A DNA stretch of 53,993 nt from a virus (Duplodnaviria; Caudoviricetes): IMG/VR virus record IMGVR_UViG_3300049927_000029, positions 1-53,993 of that record; one strand, given 5' to 3'. The position numbers were made by a program, and so were the translations under genes. Positions 19,901 through 27,106 of this stretch are shown here, in pieces. The notes under the pieces are model-generated. The model did no database searches and was not told the DNA's origin. It saw only the letters and a list, made by a program, of their open reading frames with translations. Position 1 is the first letter of the stretch; every line of letters begins with the position of its first letter.

Positions 19901-20616
19901 ATTTGATGAAAGGCGATTGCCTGGAAATGATGAAGCTTATTCCGGAGGGCTCTGTGGAAATGGTGCTTTGTGATTTGCCTTACGGTACGACGCAGAACAA
20001 GTGGGACGCAGTTATCCCATTCGACCAGCTTTGGGCGGAATACCGGCGGATTTGCAAAGGCGCGATTGTCTTGACCGCTGCGCAACCTTTCACATCCGCG
20101 CTAGTTATGAGCAACCCTGGACTATTCAAGTACCAATGGGTTTGGGAAAAGAGCGTGGCAACAAACTTCTTGAACGCCAAGAAACAACCGCTGCGCAATC
20201 ACGAAGACGTACTGGTTTTTTATGCTGAGCAGCCTACCTATAACCCTCAAATGGTGCCAGGGGAACGAAAGACATCTAGACGGGTAGGTACGAAGACAAG
20301 CAACTACGGCAAAGCCGATAAGGAAACTTTTTACGATTCGACCGAGCGCTACCCTCTTAGTGTCCAGCGTTTCGGCTCCAGAATTGACGGTGCAGCACTG
20401 CACCCCACCCAAAAGCCTGTCGCGCTAATGGAATACCTGATCCGTACCTACACGAACGAAGGCGACACCGTTCTCGATAACACCATGGGCAGCGGCACCA
20501 CCGGCGTTGCGTGCGTAAACGCAGGCCGGAAATTCATCGGCATTGAGCGCGATGATAAATACTTTGCCATCGCGCAGAAACGTATCGAAGACGCGATGTA
20601 TGGAGACCTCGTATGA
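19897..20616 (+). CDS. beta-class N4-C/N6-A DNA methyltransferase inserted in the polymerase locus
   Basis: DLPYG motif IV, HPTQKPV, DNTMGSGTTG motif I. Confidence 0.9.
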   Translation: MNLMKGDCLEMMKLIPEGSVEMVLCDLPYGTTQNKWDAVIPFDQLWAEYRRICKGAIVLTAAQPFTSALVMSNPGLFKYQWVWEKSVATNFLNAKKQPLRNHEDVLVFYAEQPTYNPQMVPGERKTSRRVGTKTSNYGKADKETFYDSTERYPLSVQRFGSRIDGAALHPTQKPVALMEYLIRTYTNEGDTVLDNTMGSGTTGVACVNAGRKFIGIERDDKYFAIAQKRIEDAMYGDLV

Positions 20617-22460
20617 CGACGGTGATGGAAGCATGCAGCAGTGCGATACGCGGCCTTATAATCGCACCGCCTAAAAAGAAACTGGCTATCGCGGATTTGT
20701 CAAACGTAGAAGGCAGAGTGCTCGCTTGGCTGGCCGGTGAAGCATGGAAGCTCCAGGCGTTCCGTGAGTACGATACGCAGCTCGGATTAGACGGCGTTTG
20801 GTATACAGGCGAAGAGATCAACGCAGAGGCATTGCGAGGGTCACCAATCCCTGTCGAGCTGAACGCTAAAGGCGATCCAGTAACGCTCGGCCACGACCTT
20901 TACAAACTAGCCTACGCCAAGGCTTTCGGCATTGACGCGGCAGATGTCGACGGGTTCATGCGGCAGATCGGCAAGACCATGGAACTCGCTCTCGGGTTCG
21001 GCGGAGGGTGTGGCGCGTTCATTACCTTCTCGCTCGCATTCAACATCGACCTGGAAGCAATGGCGGAGAAGGCTTACGACAACATCCCAAAAAGCACCAT
21101 GGCTGAAGCCGAAAGCTTCCTCGAATGGCAGCTCGGTCAGGGCAAAAGCCAGTTTGGTTTGAGTGATCGCGCGTACACAGTCTGCGAATCCTTTAAACGC
21201 CTGTGGCGCGAATCCCACCCTGCGATCAGCAGCTACTGGAAGGATCTTGAAGAAACAATCCGTCGCGCGATCAACAACCCCGGACAGACATTGACCTGTC
21301 GAATGCATAAGGTTCGTCGGGACGGCGCTTGGCTTCGAGTCATGTTGCCGTCAGGTCGCTACCTCTGCTATCCATCCCCACGCGTAGAGGACGACGGGCA
21401 GATTACTTATATGGGCATTAACCAGTACAGCCGTAAGTGGGAACGCTTGCGCAGCTATGGTGGAAAATTCGTTGAAAACTGCATCGCCGAGGGGACCGAA
21501 GTTCTTACCGAGAAATTCGGATGGCGGGCTATAGAACGTGTGACACCTGATACCAGAGTGTGGGACGGCGACGAATGGGTATCCTTCTCCCATTGTCATT
21601 ACAGCGGTAAACAAACTACTATTCCAACCTACGGCGTTCACATGACGCCTGATCACTTGGTTTTGACCGAAGAGGGTTGGAAGAATGCATCATCGTGCGG
21701 TGGATATAACCGGGCTGCGTGTCGGTTACCTGACGGCTATCAGATACCAGGGTTCGACCGGAAAGAAATCGATGTGGGAAGTGGCGTGCGATTGCGGGAA
21801 AGTCATTCTGATGGACCCTTCCCAGTTGAAGAAGCACGCAAAGAGAGGAGTTCGGTGCTCATGTGGCTGCATGCGCAAAGCTACCCAATCCGAGAGGAGA
21901 ACACGCCACGGCATGAGTCAGCACCCCGCTTTCGCGGTTTGGCGCGCAATGATCGATCGATGCAGGCTACCGACGCATCATGCTTACAAAAACTATGGCG
22001 GTCGGGGAATAACGGTCTGCGACAGATGGCAGGAGTTATTCGAAAACTTCTGGGAAGACATGGGCGAGAAGTACAAACCGGGGCTGACATTGGAGCGCTT
22101 GGACAACTCGTTAGGCTATTCCAAGGAGAACTGCGACTGGCGTACCCGAAAGCACCAAGCGAACAACACTCGGCGCAACCACTGGTTAGAAACGCCACAC
22201 GGCCGGATGACGCTGATGGAAGCTTCCGAGTTCTACGGAGTGGGCTACACGACTTTGATGTACCGCCTGGATCACGAGTGGCCGATAGAACAAGCGCTGA
22301 TACCCGTAGGGTCTTCGACCTTGTTGATTGCGGACCACGCTCTCGGTTTGTTGTGAGAGGCACCGACGGCTTGCCGCTGATCGTCCACAACTGCACGCAG
22401 GCAGCCGCCCGCGATGTCATTGGGCGATCAATGCCGAGGATTGAAGCATGGAGACCGTAA
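20613..22460 (+). CDS. DNA polymerase A, part 2 (motifs A, B), intein-containing
   Basis: [10 protein letters not shown]; [16 protein letters not shown]; YGGKFVEN|intein|CTQAAARD. Confidence 0.9.
21480..22391 (+). mobile_element. intein (304 aa) in DNA polymerase
   Basis: block [11 protein letters not shown], block [10 protein letters not shown], block F VFDL, block G LIVHN|C. Confidence 0.92.
21685..22356 (+). CDS. HNH endonuclease nested in the +1 frame of the polymerase intein
   Basis: [52 protein letters not shown]; GAGGG SD. Confidence 0.9.
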   Translation: MHHRAVDITGLRVGYLTAIRYQGSTGKKSMWEVACDCGKVILMDPSQLKKHAKRGVRCSCGCMRKATQSERRTRHGMSQHPAFAVWRAMIDRCRLPTHHAYKNYGGRGITVCDRWQELFENFWEDMGEKYKPGLTLERLDNSLGYSKENCDWRTRKHQANNTRRNHWLETPHGRMTLMEASEFYGVGYTTLMYRLDHEWPIEQALIPVGSSTLLIADHALGLL

Positions 22461-22645
22461 AGCAGTTCGACCAGGGTTTCGAGATTGTCGTAACGGTACA
22501 CGACGAAATCATTTGTGAGGCGCCAGACGATCCAGCCTTTAGCGATGGGGTTTTAGCCGCCCTCATGGCCCAAGGCGAAGATTGGACAGAAGGCTTACCG
22601 CTCGCCGCAGCCGGCTTCGAAGCGTATCGCTACCGGAAAGGTTGA
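22448..22645 (+). CDS. DNA polymerase A, part 3 (motif C)
   Basis: [30 protein letters not shown]; GAGGA SD at 22436-22440. Confidence 0.85.
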
Positions 22646-22695
22646 CGGCGAGTTCTATCTAGGAATACTATCTAGATTCTACGGTTTCTAGATAG
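22642..22695 (+). promoter_or_regulatory. putative promoter with CTATCTAG direct and inverted repeats
   Basis: TTGACG-N18-TACTAT; CTATCTAG at 22655 and 22668; CTAGATAG at 22688. Confidence 0.45.
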
Positions 22696-22705
22696 GTTAA
22701 ATGCG

Positions 22706-22864
22706 ATGCGCGAACAAGTATATTTCGGTCGGCTTTGTCCGAAGCACCCTGAGCTTAAGGGTGAACGCTGGATCAAGTCATACCGCTGCGTTGAATGCCT
22801 GCGGATCTACGCGAAGAAATACCGCGATGCGAAAAAGGAGATCAAAAATGGCGCCGACGCTTAA
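22706..22864 (+). CDS. 52-aa zinc-finger-like protein
   Basis: YFGRLCPKH..ER..YRCVEC; read manually. Confidence 0.5.
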   Translation: MREQVYFGRLCPKHPELKGERWIKSYRCVECLRIYAKKYRDAKKEIKNGADA

Positions 22865-23384
22865 GGGTTTCACTCGCGAGTATTTGGCGTCGCTGTTCTC
22901 CTACGATCCGGAGACCGGGCGGATTACCCGTTTAGTCACTGCGGGGCCCATAGGTCGATACGGCAAAATACTTGAGTCTCCACATAACGCCGGGTACACC
23001 CAGGTCGCGCACAAAGGTAAACGGATGCTACTGCATCGCTTGGCCTACTTCTTACATACCGGAGAAACCCCGCAGGAAATCGATCACATAAACCATGATC
23101 GGAAGAACAACCGCTCCGAGAATTTAAGGGCCGCAACAAGCTCCTTGAATAAATGCAACGCTCCTATTCGGGTGACGAATAGCTCAGGGTTCAAAGGCGT
23201 TTGGTATGACAAGAGCAGGAATCGCTATACGGCTCAGTTTCAGTACCAAGGGGTAAATCGCCGGTTAGGGAGATTCAAAACTGCTGAAGAGGCTGCGCGG
23301 GCGTATGACAGGGCCGCGGTGGAAGCAGTGGGCGAATTCGCATTGACCAACGCAAAAATGGGATTGCTTAAGGAGTGCGTGTGA
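22848..23384 (+). CDS. HNH-AP2 homing endonuclease
   Basis: HRLAY..IDHINHDRKNNRSENLR..SGFKGV..LGRFKTAEEAARAYD; AGGAG SD before 22848. Confidence 0.9.
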   Translation: MAPTLKGFTREYLASLFSYDPETGRITRLVTAGPIGRYGKILESPHNAGYTQVAHKGKRMLLHRLAYFLHTGETPQEIDHINHDRKNNRSENLRAATSSLNKCNAPIRVTNSSGFKGVWYDKSRNRYTAQFQYQGVNRRLGRFKTAEEAARAYDRAAVEAVGEFALTNAKMGLLKECV

Positions 23385-23719
23385 TGCTGGAAAGAGACAT
23401 TGAAGCGCACCTGGTGAAACGGTGTAAGGAGATCGGGGCGCTCGCGGATAAATTTACTTCTCCGAGCCGGCGTTCGGTCCCTGATCGGCTGATCACCTTT
23501 AACGGGCGCGTGCTGTTCGTTGAGCTGAAAGCTACCCGGAAGGAACCGACAGAGGCCCAATACAGAGATCACGACAGACGCAGGGAAGTAGGGGCGGAAG
23601 TTGTGTGGACGGACAGCAAGAAGGGATGTGATTCCTTGTTGCATTCTTTGCAACGCGGCGAAAAGGTGCCGGTCTTCTCAAACTGGCAAGTGCACGAGGA
23701 AATCCACCTTGGCGATTGA
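23384..23719 (+). CDS. VRR-NUC domain nuclease
   Basis: ERDIE..KFTSP..VPDRL..FVELKA..Q. Confidence 0.85.
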   Translation: MLERDIEAHLVKRCKEIGALADKFTSPSRRSVPDRLITFNGRVLFVELKATRKEPTEAQYRDHDRRREVGAEVVWTDSKKGCDSLLHSLQRGEKVPVFSNWQVHEEIHLGD

Positions 23720-26021
23720 ATACAAACCGCACGCCTATCAAGGGCTAATCATGTCCGCTATCCATGCGACCAGGCGTTTGGCCGTGTGGGCCGGAATGGG
23801 GCTCGGCAAGTCGGTCAGCACGGCCACGGCGCTGGAAGACCTTTCGCTTACTGAGGATGTCTATCCGGTCTTGATCGTCGCACCGTTGCGCGTAGCGCGT
23901 ACCACTTGGCCGCAGGAGTACCAGAAGTGGACCCACCTTAAGCATCGCCGTGTCGTGACGATCTGCGGCGCGCTCAAGGAACGTCAAGCGGCGCTACGCA
24001 TGAAGGCTGATGTCTACACGGTCAACTTCGAGCAGCTTGAATGGCTGGTCGAGCAGCTAGGCGACAAATGGCCGTTCCGCACAGTGGTAGTCGACGAAGC
24101 AACCAAGCTCAAGGGTTTCCGGCTGCGTCAAGGTACGCGACGCGCTAAAGCCCTGGCCCGAGTTGCACATACCAAGATCAAGCGCATCATTCTGCTGACC
24201 GGTACGCCGAGCCCTAACGGTCTCCAAGACCTTTGGGGGCAGATGTGGTTCGTTGATAAGGGTGATCGTCTCGGGCGCACCTACGACGCCTTTAAGCAAC
24301 GCTGGTTCCGCGCTTCGCATACCGGGTTTGGCGTAGAAGCCACAGATCAAGCGCAAGAGCAGATCCAAAAAGCGTTAGGTGACGTGTGTATCACGATTGA
24401 CGCCGCAGATTGGTTCGACCTAAAAGAGCCGATCGTGAACGTGATCCGCGTAGAGCTGCCCTCGGCCGCACGCGTCCTTTACAAGAACATGGAAAAGCAA
24501 ATGTTCATGGACCTTGAAGGGTCGCAGGTTGAGGCGTTGAATGCCGCCGCTAAGACGCAGAAGTGCATCGCGGAAGGTACTGAAATCCTGACCGACTCCG
24601 GCTGGAAACCGATTGAGCGATTCGCCCAAGGGGATCTGGTGTGGGATGGGGTCGAATGGGTAAGTGTCTACAAATTAGCTTGCCACGGCTATAAGTCTGT
24701 CGTAGATTGCTTCGGAGTCACCATGACGCCAGACCACAAGGTGCTGACCGTCGAAGGGTGGAAAACCGCCGAGGAGATAAACAATGACGGTACAGTTGAC
24801 AGGCAAAGTGTTCGGCTACCTGACAGTGCTGGGGCGCTCGGGGTCCACGGACACCATAGCGCGGAGAGCGCTATGGGAAGCGCAATGCGTGTGCGGGAAG
24901 GTCATAACGTGCATCGGTACAAATCTGCGCAACCCCAACAGGGGAGAGAAGAAGTCTTGCGGGTGCAAGCGCCGGGAAATGCTCTTGGATGCTTGGGGTA
25001 CTCACGGCATGTCGAAGCACAGGGCTTTCCACACGTGGAGCAACATGAAATCCAGGTGCAGCAACCCAAACGACAAAGACTGGCCCAATTACGGCGGTCG
25101 GGGAATTTCGGTTTGCGAACGGTGGCGCGATTCGTTCGACGCTTTTTGGGAAGACATGGGCTCGACTTATTCGGACGATCTTACGATCGAGCGCAAGAAC
25201 AACAATGGCAATTATCAGGCAGACAACTGTCGATGGGCTACGGTTCGGGAGCAATCAAACAACACACGCTTCAACGTATGGCTGAATACTCCGGCGGGGC
25301 GTATGACGGTTGCGCAGGCGGCCAGGTTCTACGATATCAAGACTGTAACGCTTCGGGCCAGGTTGAAGAAAGGATGGCCGGTACTACGGGCGTTAGGCTT
25401 GTCTACGACCTTATCAACGCGGGTCCAAGACACCGCTTTACCGTTCGAGGAACAGACGGTAAGCCATTGATTGTCCACAATTGTTTACAAATTGCCAGCG
25501 GAGCGGCATATGTGGAAGGCGGACCGCAGTGGAAAAAGATTCATGACGAGAAGCTGAACGCATTGGAGGAAATCCTCGAAGAAGCTGCCGGCATGCCGGT
25601 GCTCGTGGCCTACAACTTTAAAAGCGATCTGGCGAGGCTCTTGGCGCGCTTCCCCCAAGGCCGACACCTGGACAAGAAGCCGGAGACGATCGACGCGTGG
25701 AACGCCGGAGAGATCCCGATCATGTTCGCCCACCCGGCCAGCGCTGGTCACGGTTTGAACCTGCAGGACGGGGGCAATATTCTGGTGTTCTTCAGCGTCA
25801 ACTGGAACTTGGAGGAGCATCAACAAATCATCGAGCGTAACGGGCCGGTGCGCCAACTGCAGGCTGGCCACAACCGCCCGGTGTTCCACCACTTCATCCT
25901 GGCCGCTGACACCGTGGACGAACTGGTATTGGAGCGCCTGCAGACCAAACGAGAGGTGCAGGAGATACTTCTAAAAGCGATGAGGGATAACGGATTTAAC
26001 CCTATAGAGGACGCGGCATGA
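23709..26021 (+). CDS. SNF2-like helicase, intein-containing
   Basis: GMGLGKS, VVDEAT, LTGTP, HPASAGHGLNLQ; TTG start at 23709 with GAGGA SD. Confidence 0.9.
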   Translation: MAIEYKPHAYQGLIMSAIHATRRLAVWAGMGLGKSVSTATALEDLSLTEDVYPVLIVAPLRVARTTWPQEYQKWTHLKHRRVVTICGALKERQAALRMKADVYTVNFEQLEWLVEQLGDKWPFRTVVVDEATKLKGFRLRQGTRRAKALARVAHTKIKRIILLTGTPSPNGLQDLWGQMWFVDKGDRLGRTYDAFKQRWFRASHTGFGVEATDQAQEQIQKALGDVCITIDAADWFDLKEPIVNVIRVELPSAARVLYKNMEKQMFMDLEGSQVEALNAAAKTQKCIAEGTEILTDSGWKPIERFAQGDLVWDGVEWVSVYKLACHGYKSVVDCFGVTMTPDHKVLTVEGWKTAEEINNDGTVDRQSVRLPDSAGALGVHGHHSAESAMGSAMRVREGHNVHRYKSAQPQQGREEVLRVQAPGNALGCLGYSRHVEAQGFPHVEQHEIQVQQPKRQRLAQLRRSGNFGLRTVARFVRRFLGRHGLDLFGRSYDRAQEQQWQLSGRQLSMGYGSGAIKQHTLQRMAEYSGGAYDGCAGGQVLRYQDCNASGQVEERMAGTTGVRLVYDLINAGPRHRFTVRGTDGKPLIVHNCLQIASGAAYVEGGPQWKKIHDEKLNALEEILEEAAGMPVLVAYNFKSDLARLLARFPQGRHLDKKPETIDAWNAGEIPIMFAHPASAGHGLNLQDGGNILVFFSVNWNLEEHQQIIERNGPVRQLQAGHNRPVFHHFILAADTVDELVLERLQTKREVQEILLKAMRDNGFNPIEDAA
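24564..25481 (+). mobile_element. intein (306 aa) in helicase
   Basis: KTQK|CIAEGTEILT..MTPDHKVLT..VYDL..LIVHN|CLQIASG. Confidence 0.92.
24784..25470 (+). CDS. HNH endonuclease nested in the +1 frame of the helicase intein
   Basis: CVCG..SCGC..HGMS..W.NMK.RC..YGGRGISVCERW..DMG..TIERKNNNGNY..NCRW..QSNN; GAGGAG SD. Confidence 0.9.
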   Translation: MTVQLTGKVFGYLTVLGRSGSTDTIARRALWEAQCVCGKVITCIGTNLRNPNRGEKKSCGCKRREMLLDAWGTHGMSKHRAFHTWSNMKSRCSNPNDKDWPNYGGRGISVCERWRDSFDAFWEDMGSTYSDDLTIERKNNNGNYQADNCRWATVREQSNNTRFNVWLNTPAGRMTVAQAARFYDIKTVTLRARLKKGWPVLRALGLSTTLSTRVQDTALPFEEQTVSH

Positions 26022-26419
26022 AGCTGAAAAAGGCGGAGCGCGAACAGGTTCGTATGAAGTACGGCGGGCGCTGCGCTTATTGCGGAGTGGTTCTATCCGA
26101 TCGGTGGCACGCCGACCATCTTGTGCCTGTACAAAGGGAATTGCTTTCAAAGCAAAACGCTAATGGTACTTGGCGTTTGGATTCCGGTAAGCCTCTAAAG
26201 CCGGAGAACGACACCGTAGAAAATATGATGCCGGCGTGCGCGCCATGCAACATCAGCAAAGGCGCTCAGACGTTAGAAGGGTGGCGTAACTGGATCGCCG
26301 GCCATGTGAACAGCCTGAACAGTTACCACCCAATCTACAGATTGGCGAAAGCATATGGGCTGATAACTGAAACCGCCGCGCCGGTAGTGTTCTACTTCGA
26401 AAAGGAAGACCTAGTATGA
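26018..26419 (+). CDS. HNH endonuclease
   Basis: GRCAYCG..WHADH..NMMPACAPCNISK. Confidence 0.85.
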   Translation: MKLKKAEREQVRMKYGGRCAYCGVVLSDRWHADHLVPVQRELLSKQNANGTWRLDSGKPLKPENDTVENMMPACAPCNISKGAQTLEGWRNWIAGHVNSLNSYHPIYRLAKAYGLITETAAPVVFYFEKEDLV

Positions 26420-26697
26420 CCCAACAGAAAACCGGCGGCAGCGTCGACTATTACAAATGCCACGTCGCTGATCCCATTTCCAAAGGCGAACCGTACACCG
26501 CCGAGAGCATCGACATTATCGAAGCGCTTGGTATGACCTTCGCGGAAGGTGAAGCGTTTAAAGCGATCTGGCGTACCTGCACTGGCCGCATGGGCGGCGC
26601 GGTAAAGGCGGACAACAAAGCGTTGTACAACGCTGAGAAAGTCGAATTCTTCGGCGCTCGCATGGTGCGGGCCGCGAAAAGGAGTGAAGCGAAATGA
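26416..26697 (+). CDS. DUF3310-like protein
   Basis: YY..ESIDIIEAL..FAEGEAFKAIWR. Confidence 0.6.
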   Translation: MTQQKTGGSVDYYKCHVADPISKGEPYTAESIDIIEALGMTFAEGEAFKAIWRTCTGRMGGAVKADNKALYNAEKVEFFGARMVRAAKRSEAK

Positions 26698-26957
26698 CTG
26701 ATAAAATGCGTGAAGAGTTCGAAGCGGCTTATACCGAAATGCAGATTCGCGCGGGGATCAACTCCGTGAAAAGGCTGTTCGATACCCTAGAGGGTTCGTA
26801 CATCAGCAGTACAACGAAGGCCGCTTGGTGGGGCTGGCAAGCTTCCCGCGCAGTAATTCGCGTAGACCTGCCGCATCTGTTTCCGCTCTATCGCGAAGGC
26901 GTTACCGAAGCGCTGCTCGTCCACGGAATCAAGGTAAAGCAGTGGGGCGGCAAATGA
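26694..26957 (+). CDS. hypothetical protein
   Basis: REEFEA..AWWGWQASR; ATGA-coupled. Confidence 0.65.
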   Translation: MTDKMREEFEAAYTEMQIRAGINSVKRLFDTLEGSYISSTTKAAWWGWQASRAVIRVDLPHLFPLYREGVTEALLVHGIKVKQWGGK

Positions 26958-27106
26958 AAATCCTAGCCATGCTTTACGTGATCGCTTTCCCCGGCGCTGC
27001 GCCCCAGCCAGTGGCCGCGTACTTCACGCAGGACGCCCAGGTTATCTGCCAGGCGACAGCCGCTGCGCAAAATGCAACTGAGGAAGAGGAGTATTACTGT
27101 GAGTGA
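26954..27106 (+). CDS. small hypothetical protein with hydrophobic N-terminus
   Basis: ATGA-coupled MKILAMLYVIAF. Confidence 0.5.
   Translation: MKILAMLYVIAFPGAAPQPVAAYFTQDAQVICQATAAAQNATEEEEYYCE

Follow-up and report, generated by a model that had tools for sequence, protein, structure and literature searches.

An intein carrying an out-of-frame endonuclease-like gene in a phage SNF2 helicase, and its relation to a second copy in PolA of the same genome

Introduction

Publications of 2025-2026 still describe as rare those inteins whose endonuclease is encoded in another reading frame. This study concerns such an arrangement in the virus record IMGVR_UViG_3300049927_000029 of IMG/VR, where an intein in the SNF2-family helicase gene holds, in the +1 frame, a nested open reading frame (ORF) for a protein of a phage family annotated as HNH endonuclease. 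The window analysed is the complete 53,993-bp record, which is metagenome-derived, and a related element lies in the DNA polymerase gene PolA of the same genome.

Several described systems are close to this locus. Gosselin et al. (bioRxiv 2025) described inteins with antisense homing endonucleases (HENs) of the LAGLIDADG or VSR-like type and with a same-strand 'frame 3' HEN similar to endonuclease VII, the hosts of the non-canonical HENs being DNA polymerase (Pol III alpha is in the host list), minor capsid, terminase and thymidylate synthase, and they proposed that a free-standing homing endonuclease gene (HEG) had invaded an intein. The window element is like theirs in having a same-strand, out-of-frame gene of free-standing type, similar to endonucleases of the beta-beta-alpha superfamily, in the HEN region, together with an in-frame linker of no recognisable structure. 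In their main text, however, 'frame 3' is the only same-strand offset, the HEN matches T4 endonuclease VII whereas the nested protein of the window matches no Pfam family, the host of the endonuclease VII-like type is not stated, and the term SNF2 does not occur; on that main text, supplementary tables aside, the window family is set apart from theirs, and some overlap between the two is possible. Phillips, DeSimone and Gogarten (bioRxiv 10.64898/2026.09.14.751524) reported a cyanobacterial dnaX intein with a LAGLIDADG endonuclease in the +2 ORF and credited the non-canonical idea to Gorbalenya 1998. As in the window, splicing and homing lie there in separate overlapping frames, the endonuclease frame is under purifying selection, and the ratio of nonsynonymous to synonymous substitution rates (dN/dS) of the extein frame is inflated over the overlap; but the dnaX system concerns a cellular gene, a LAGLIDADG enzyme and one site, whereas the window family concerns phages, an HNH-like protein and many sub-sites in two genes. 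The ShiLan domain of an actinophage DNA methylase (Arsenault et al. 2025, PMC11855218) is a hidden, non-splicing, out-of-frame HNH insertion, which resembles the window element in that an out-of-frame HNH-type gene lies inside a stop-free host ORF, but it has no detectable splicing domain, whereas the window element has a complete HINT domain.

Among cultured phages, the DNA polymerase P45 of Hamiltonella phage APSE-1 and the overlapping P46 (NC_000935; also in APSE-2 to -7) are arranged like the SNF2 element, with a start right after block B and an open host frame. RefSeq annotates P46 as 'HNH endonuclease' and P45 as 'DNA polymerase', the two being marked as overlapping, and the equivalents in Caulobacter phages and phage SFCi1 are unannotated. 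The inteins of APSE, of Caulobacter phages GB2A, RW, RLK and KcrB and of SFCi1 have 306-308 amino acids (aa) and are 33-36% identical to the SNF2 intein, and their nested +1 ORFs are 42-44% identical to the SNF2 nested ORF and 48-58% to the PolA one. All of them lie in PolA, at YGGK[LS]^CEN or ...EN^C.QA (the caret marks the splice junction here and below), unlike the SNF2 copy, and of the 24 GenBank phage records whose intein coverage reaches 80% or more, none has a helicase as host. SNF2/HepA has been named among intein-bearing bacterial proteins. The APSE papers searched mention, in their accessible text, only the intein or its loss, and no text on the P45/P46 overlap as an intein-plus-HEG unit, or on the PolA/SNF2 family, was found in a search outside which most subscription journals and supplements fell. 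The window element is of this known kind, a homing endonuclease gene lying out of frame inside an intein, in a new host gene, SNF2: the ORF lies in another frame with the host frame open, an unstructured linker is paired with a folded alternative-frame protein, and selection on the two frames is asymmetric, as shown below.

Intein and nested ORF in the SNF2 helicase gene

The helicase precursor gene lies at 23709-26021 on the plus strand, as do the other parts of the two elements (the database gene call makes it 770 aa long, and its longest ORF begins at 23601), and its identity is given by Pfam SNF2-rel_dom (E 3.5e-17) and PHROG 62 DNA helicase (E 3e-143). The N-extein (23709-24563) ends in ...AAAKTQK and is contiguous with the C-extein in intein-less homologues. 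The intein of 306 aa (24564-25481, 918 nucleotides (nt)) begins with TGC for Cys1 at 24564-24566 and closes with His305-Asn306, the AAT of Asn306 ending at 25481, and the TGT of Cys+1 at 25482 opens the C-extein (CLQIASGAAY..., 25482-26021 with the stop codon), so that the junctions read AKTQK^CIAEGTE...PLIVHN^CLQIASG. Within the intein, the N-terminal splicing lobe with blocks A and B (MTPDH) takes residues 1-92 (24564-24839), a stop-free linker takes residues ~98-271 (24855-25376), and the C-terminal lobe with blocks F and G (...VYDLINAGPRHRFTVRGTDGKPLIVHN) takes residues 275-306 (25386-25481). The nested +1-frame ORF of 228 aa runs from 24784 to 25470, and a Shine-Dalgarno (SD)-like GAGGAG, made of Glu-Glu codons in the intein frame, stands at 24771-24776, 7 nt 5' of its ATG. 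The initial annotation had already delimited the 306-aa intein with its blocks, the bounds of the ORF and the GAGGAG, and all of its coordinates and sequence features were correct on re-check.

The splicing domain is well marked in the intein frame. An alignment of 48 homologues shows no variation at Cys1, T55, H58 (block B TPDH), D282, G287 or N306, and conservation of 90% or more at H305, and the features of a class-1 intein are present, namely Cys at position 1, TxxH in block B, and blocks F/G ending in His-Asn followed by Cys+1. AlphaFold2, run on the same alignment, gave a pLDDT (predicted local distance difference test) score above 90 for residues 1-92 (90-98) and 275-306 (96-97), and of 41-60 for the linker, which is predicted to be disordered. 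When the confident parts of the model were compared with the PDB by Foldseek, the top matches were nearly all intein/HINT-type splicing domains (2imz, 6frg and 4kl5; Mtu RecA, Ssp DnaB mini-intein and Npu DnaE; probability 1.0, E 1.4e-3 to 1e-2). PF14890 is matched by two distant relatives, but elsewhere in their PolA. The empty alleles agree with these boundaries: in five SNF2 alleles (L004, L027, L031, L038 and L085) the exteins meet as ...K^CLQLANGA, the junction gap being 0 nt there and 6 nt in a sixth allele (L034), and six empty PolA alleles read ...EN^[VWAI].QA. Because a covariance search of window positions 20000-27000 against Rfam gave no intron match at E <= 1, the reading as a group I intron was dropped. 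The insert at 24564-25481 is thus, to judge from its sequence, a class-1 intein placed directly before a Cys already native to intein-less SNF2, and the linker between its lobes (~175 residues, the usual place of a HEN domain) is predicted to encode no folded domain in the intein frame.

Open host frame and selection on the two frames

The host frames of both window copies are stop-free over the full overlap, and the third frame has 12 and 17 stops; the statement of the initial annotation that both intein frames stay open for more than 220 overlapping codons is borne out. When synonymous codons were shuffled inside the nested ORF, a stop-free host frame was obtained in 0 of 5000 trials for SNF2 and 3 of 5000 for PolA, with 6-8 stops expected, and when nested ORFs were resampled from the codon usage of the window it was obtained in 0 of 5000 for both copies, with 9-12 stops expected. 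In the linker of the SNF2 intein, 0 stops stand against 7.6-11.9 expected. The same shuffle on relatives gave 1/5000 for APSE-1, 1/5000 for Caulobacter GB2A and 0.012 for Shewanella SFCi1. One alternative frame with zero stops exists in 63 of 65 non-duplicate nested homologues, and in none of the 10 free-standing homologues (2-47 stops), which comprise nine GenBank phage genes and one gene in a locus flank.

Selection was estimated by the Nei-Gojobori method on seven element pairs with 64-91% nt identity, and all seven gave the same pattern. Over the overlap, the nested frame has a dN/dS of 0.10-0.44 and the intein frame one of 1.22-2.04; the non-overlapped splicing lobes have 0.05-0.30. For the window and its closest relative, locus L007, the values are 0.10 in the nested frame, 1.28 in the intein frame of the overlap and 0.21 in the N-terminal splicing lobe, and the substitutions fall 13/5/38 on nested-frame codon positions 1/2/3. 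Protein-level constraint acts on the nested protein and on the two splicing lobes, and the intein linker is constrained only against stops. The dual-coding selection proposed in the initial annotation is therefore one-sided, since purifying selection is seen in the nested frame and the ratio of the intein frame exceeds 1 in the overlap, where that frame is kept stop-free and nothing more.

The nested protein and the HNH question

The nested SNF2 ORF matches PHROG families annotated 'HNH endonuclease' (phrog_374, E 5e-58; phrog_3377, E 2e-49), and its homologues occur in 971 GenBank phage records; the PolA nested copy also has a weak match to phrog_1035 'endonuclease VII' (E 5e-5). The AlphaFold2 model (pLDDT 88.5) consists of an N-terminal beta Zn-ribbon with invariant C35, C37, C59 and C61, a helical region, a beta-beta-alpha unit at residues 134-160 that is nuclease-like, and a C-terminal helix-turn-helix (HTH) at 171-197 (HTH_psq, E 0.0013). 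Residues 211-228 overlie intein blocks F/G with pLDDT ~53, and this tail looks like read-through to the first available stop. In the model the strands of the beta-beta-alpha unit are residues 134-137 and 149-152 and its helix is 154-159, and 13 columns are invariant in the alignment of 48 sequences, including R137, Y144, N148 and N160. The metal-ligand equivalents D/E136 and N160 and the structural Asn N148 are conserved.

In the HNH fold, the catalytic general-base His sits at the end of strand beta-1, and HNH-type enzymes without this His exist, such as PacI, which uses Tyr. The HNH homing endonuclease I-HmuI (PDB 1U3E), whose type is either free-standing or intron-encoded, resembles the nested family in its beta-beta-alpha core, its ...NLRW.T...N.. 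signature and its modular DNA-binding tails, at a match that is not significant (E 0.057), but it has DH where the nested family has D/E-R with R137 invariant, so the canonical general-base His is absent from the nested protein. The annotated Atlas clusters nearest to the family carry NUMOD1 or I-HmuI_NUMOD-like modules. An active, His-less HNH variant is plausible on the precedent of PacI, and the HNH catalytic identity is unproven, the label being that of the PHROG families. The initial annotation had described a +1-frame HNH protein starting after block B behind GAGGAG, of which the frame, the position and the SD motif stand, and the HNH identity is not confirmed, as no Pfam HNH model is matched and Arg takes the place of His.

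Among 51 distinct elements the nested ORFs start with ATG in 40, GTG in 10 and TTG in 1. In the PolA group, the conserved E-G-W codons that follow block B supply the SD-like motif.

Family size, hosts and target sites

When the intein part of the SNF2 precursor was scored against 5.8 billion proteins at E <= 1e-3, 953 homologous proteins were found, and among the 120 of them listed, 61 carry PF00176 (SNF2), 51 carry PF00476 (PolA), 1 carries Helicase_C only and 7 carry nothing. The SNF2 proteins P0042, P0053 and P0068, which are matched by the intein, also hold PF14890/PF07591/PF14623, or PF14528 LAGLIDADG_3, which suggests additional, different inteins in these helicases. A scan of IMG/VR gave 80 loci, and 75 of them have a nested-ORF homologue inside the intein that is detectable by tblastn, at +1 in 65, at +2 in 10 and in frame in none. 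The out-of-frame ORF is accordingly conserved across homologous inteins, as the tabulation of nested ORFs and host genes proposed with the initial annotation was to find out. Of the 5 loci without a hit, L065 and L067 have a +1 nested homologue that is below the tblastn threshold and recognisable by eye, L063 (3001-~3400) and L076 (2501-~2900) are mini-inteins of ~135 aa without a nested ORF, and L079 is truncated by the contig end. L045 (2210-2614) is a mini-intein of 135 aa that keeps only the first 24 nested-ORF codons. The mini-inteins of L045, L063 and L076 are likely decay stages of the same element. The +2-offset loci (L050, L052, L055, L056, L059, L060, L061, L068, L069 and L085) are all PolA motif-B-region inteins, and seven of them form one clade with a support of 97 in the Shimodaira-Hasegawa-like approximate likelihood ratio test (SH-aLRT).

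The same geometry occurs in cultured phages, namely APSE-1 to -7, Caulobacter GB2A, RW, RLK and KcrB and Shewanella SFCi1, and Streptococcus Javan phages and EBPR siphovirus 2 have an intein match only. It was also found on five bacterial or metagenome-assembled genome (MAG) contigs, in a scan of cellular contigs with one peptide pattern and 6 loci, which says little on cellular distribution. Two family inteins within one PolA gene, each with its own out-of-frame nested ORF, are present in L023, L025/L044, L041-L043 and L096, the last being an Oscillospiraceae MAG contig.

The junctions fall into several types in two host genes, in agreement with the claim of the initial annotation that more than one target site had been reached. 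In SNF2 they are ...K^CLQ[ILY][AG]... (the window, L007, L008 and L009) and ...KL.Q[IM][AS]^CG..Y (L011, L015, L017, L020 and L022). In PolA they are YGGK[LSF]^CEN (the APSE type), YGGK^C[VI]EN (six rows of the tree of nested and free-standing proteins), ...EN^C.QA.ARD (the window PolA and SFCi1), and a more N-terminal motif, R..[AG]K....^C...G..YG, used at four or more positions in ten hosts, all of them PF00476 proteins interrupted at profile position ~191-218. Cys+1 pre-exists in empty SNF2 alleles, and since V, W, A or I stands there in empty PolA alleles, Cys+1 at PolA sites comes with the element. Presence and absence vary between genomes: L007 and L008 have the SNF2 element and an uninterrupted PolA, and in L004, L027, L031, L034 and L038 the PolA element is present and SNF2 is uninterrupted. 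The Caulobacter phages GB2A, RW, RLK and KcrB likewise combine an occupied PolA with an empty site in SNF2. The target DNA of PolA and SNF2 was compared by eye only, and the shared AGAA(C/G)^N6 CAG is weak, so no claim is drawn from it.

The PolA copy and signs of mobility

The PolA precursor ORF with the first copy of the element lies at 20613-22460 and matches PHROG DNA polymerase families. Its intein of 304 aa (21480-22391) holds a nested +1-frame ORF of 223 aa (21685-22356) preceded by GAGGG at 21672-21676, which is the same arrangement 3 kb upstream of the SNF2 element. The nested proteins of the two copies are 44% identical (E 1e-64), homologous and yet well diverged as had been claimed for them, and the inteins are 37% identical.

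A quick maximum-likelihood tree was built from 57 nested and free-standing proteins. One clade (SH-aLRT 97) unites 37 nested +1 ORFs and leaves six free-standing genes outside; inside it, 8 rows make up an SNF2 group (support 93) whose sister is a PolA group with 29 rows (support 98). The PolA motif-B elements, whichever their offset, fall into a clade of 14 by themselves. The window SNF2 copy groups with L007, and the window PolA copy with L012 and L019. The same four major groups come back in a weakly supported tree from the 127 columns of the splicing lobes only, which needs no more than the minimum of 3 label changes, so intein and nested ORF appear to travel together; this comparison of intein and endonuclease phylogenies had been suggested beforehand, and on the major groups the two agree. 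A recent duplication of the element within the genome was rejected because of the low identities (37% for the intein, 44% for the nested ORF) and the separate clades, and the two window copies appear, from these data, to be two old sub-lineages of one family that were acquired separately.

Comparison of window positions 23709-26018 with L007:2146-4464 showed 91.5% nt identity in the intein, with a synonymous divergence (dS) of 0.25 in the N lobe and 0.31 in the nested frame. The N-extein is 87.7% identical (dS 0.69; Fisher p 0.0099 against the intein) and the C-extein 80.3% (dS 1.87; Fisher p 1.4e-9), so the exteins, though under far stronger protein constraint (dN/dS 0.03), are more diverged than the intein. 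This is suggestive of an element transferred or converted after the host genes had diverged. The replication modules of the window and L007 have a mosaic look, and a recent exchange of the element may have taken place. The PolA proteins of the two are 70% identical. Because of this low identity, the empty PolA site of L007 shows polymorphism, and its use as a close relative indicating recent gain was rejected. As for the mobile element family proposed in the initial annotation, the conserved dual-frame geometry, the several sites and the presence/absence polymorphism speak for it, and its HNH identity is the part that was not confirmed.

Discussion

We consider it likely that the locus is a composite selfish element, in which an in-frame class-1 intein is combined with a separate +1-frame protein of a widespread phage family of free-standing genes annotated as 'HNH endonuclease'. 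Translation of the helicase would read through the linker as a disordered tether, and the HINT lobes would splice the intein out and restore the helicase. The +1 ORF would be translated independently from its own ATG with the SD motif supplied by the intein codons, and its product could cut or nick intein-less alleles during co-infection, whereupon repair would copy the intein and the ORF in. Such a partnership resembles the pairing of an intron with a free-standing HEG, at the level of protein splicing.

Several observations weigh against this explanation. The curated intein profiles remain below threshold on the SNF2 intein (Pfam Hint_2, E 0.0065, 17.3 bits for a cut-off of 28.4; intein_Nterm TIGR01445, 15 bits for 24.5). 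For the nested protein, Pfam nuclease models are matched by 0 of 48 family members at E <= 0.01 and NCBIfam gives none, Foldseek of the whole model against the PDB is not significant (best E 0.5; 1u3e, E 2.4), and the sole PDB profile match of the family is that to I-HmuI, with the DH position replaced as described. An SD-like motif is present in just 28 of the 51 distinct elements. The host frame has stops in 2 of the 80 loci, four in the overlap of L024 (3001-3963) and one in the N lobe of L028 (3121-3123); L051 has a nested ORF identical in sequence to that of L028 and an open host frame, and the interrupted frames may be dead alleles or sequencing errors. A close empty SNF2 allele was not found, the nearest empties being 46-58% identical in the N-extein, and constraints of the overlap, instead of transfer, could account for part of the intein's lower divergence from L007. 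That the intein splices, that the +1 ORF is translated and that its product is a nuclease is deduced from sequence.

The failure of Pfam HNH on all 48 members, the invariant Arg at the His position, the insignificant structural matches and the missing close empty SNF2 allele would also fit a nested protein that is not a nuclease, such as a DNA-binding or maturase-like factor or one with another phage function, in an intein kept mainly by vertical descent because precise loss is hard. We regard this as unlikely, though worth keeping in mind, because D/E136, N148 and N160 are conserved within a predicted beta-beta-alpha unit, Y144 is invariant and could stand in for the His as Tyr does in PacI, and the free-standing relatives are scattered over phage records like homing endonuclease genes, with the NUMOD1/I-HmuI_NUMOD-like Atlas neighbours; the many sub-sites with presence/absence polymorphism and the intein being less diverged than the exteins also argue against it. 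Since both ORFs lie on the same strand and the same mRNA, and the nested ORF occupies exactly the canonical place of the HEN domain, programmed frameshifts, first into the +1 frame and then out of it, might instead yield the endonuclease as part of a canonical bifunctional intein and not as a polypeptide of its own. This is quite improbable: an own start codon lies near the start of homology in 51 of 51 distinct elements, often with an SD motif, offsets of +1 and of +2 are both found, no stop interrupts the host frame anywhere in the overlap, which ribosomes that left this frame would not require, and no slippery heptamer was noticed on reading 24760-24790, where no formal search was made.

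The sub-threshold intein profiles, and the precedent of ShiLan-type elements in phage methylases (PMC11855218), could further be taken to mean that the insert is a tolerated non-splicing, in-frame HEG insertion, or a group I intron, rather than a functional intein. There is very little room for this view, given the conservation of C1, T55-x-x-H58, D282, H305-N306 and Cys+1, a predicted HINT fold that matches solved inteins, and a site in the conserved helicase motif K^CLQ[IL]A[SN]G, where a 306-aa loop would probably be harmful; for the intron variant, Rfam finds none. That the open frame arose by chance, or from a sequencing or assembly frameshift in an ordinary in-frame intein-HNH, is hardly credible. 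Apart from the metagenomic origin of the window nothing was found in its favour, and 75 of 80 independent IMG/VR loci show the geometry, 0 of these 75 in frame, as do cultured phages and bacterial MAG contigs, with shuffle P <= 6e-4 for both window copies. The initial annotation, which had argued from two copies against chance or sequencing error, was right on this point.

In size, the family of the composite element of intein and nested gene far exceeds the published examples consulted, and it is also the more site-promiscuous. We put forward only tentatively, as one possibility, that it is, with about a thousand metagenomic proteins, the largest and most mobile known overprinted-intein family, in which the linker of a mini-intein took in, never in frame, an endonuclease gene of free-standing type with a His-less 'D/E-R...Y...N...N' core, and the composite has since moved between at least 9 junction types at three motifs in two replication genes (PolA motif-B, PolA ...YGGK..EN.QA and SNF2 K-C-L-Q-x-A-x-G). 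If so, the element would make its own Cys+1 at most new sites, the 1-6 codons by which sub-sites are displaced would point to an enzyme with relaxed specificity or with cutting at a distance, together with a context-tolerant intein, and the family would lend itself naturally as a model of the origin of bifunctional inteins from an intein and a free-standing HEG. Two overprinted inteins in one phage genome lead to hundreds of PolA/SNF2 members in uncultured and cultured phages, which may serve as material for how a free-standing endonuclease gene and a mini-intein fuse into one mobile unit, for pure stop-avoidance selection imposed on an overlapping gene by an essential host frame, and for the way in which such elements pass to other target sites and other host genes. 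The family also matters for annotation, as gene callers usually miss the nested ORF or mis-call the host gene, and the nested family is without a Pfam model.

Other features of the region

The PolA gene of the window is broken just 3' of its intein (22392-22645), where a 23-nt insertion (22446-22468), relative to the uninterrupted PolA of L007, begins 55 nt downstream of the intein. A TAA stop (22458-22460) comes with it, as does an overlapping restart, GAGGA-7nt-ATG (ATG at 22448), so that the last 65 aa of PolA, including the HDE motif, make up an ORF of their own in the -1 frame. A search of the window for a further copy of the 23-mer found none. The insertion could mark a genuine fractured gene, a repair scar or an assembly error, and if the proposal of a mobile, His-less endonuclease is correct, the scar could be that of the nested nuclease.

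A promoter and terminator scan of the region gave 4 promoter-like sites with 4.7 expected from shuffles, and since this count is not above expectation an internal promoter is unsupported. Two of the four, sigma-70-like matches (9/12), lie at 21593-21622 and 24680-24708, which are equivalent spots ~115 nt into each intein and 60-75 nt upstream of the respective nested ATG. Megablast of window positions 20000-27000 against GenBank phages gave zero matches. The helicase gene is flanked by two genes of homing-endonuclease type, by a free-standing HNH_3 plus AP2 gene at 22701-23384 (E 3e-12 and 2e-9) and, directly 3' of SNF2, by a canonical PF01844 HNH gene at 26018-26419 (E 6e-6), so that four endonuclease-like genes, two nested and two flanking, lie in ~6 kb around the replication module.

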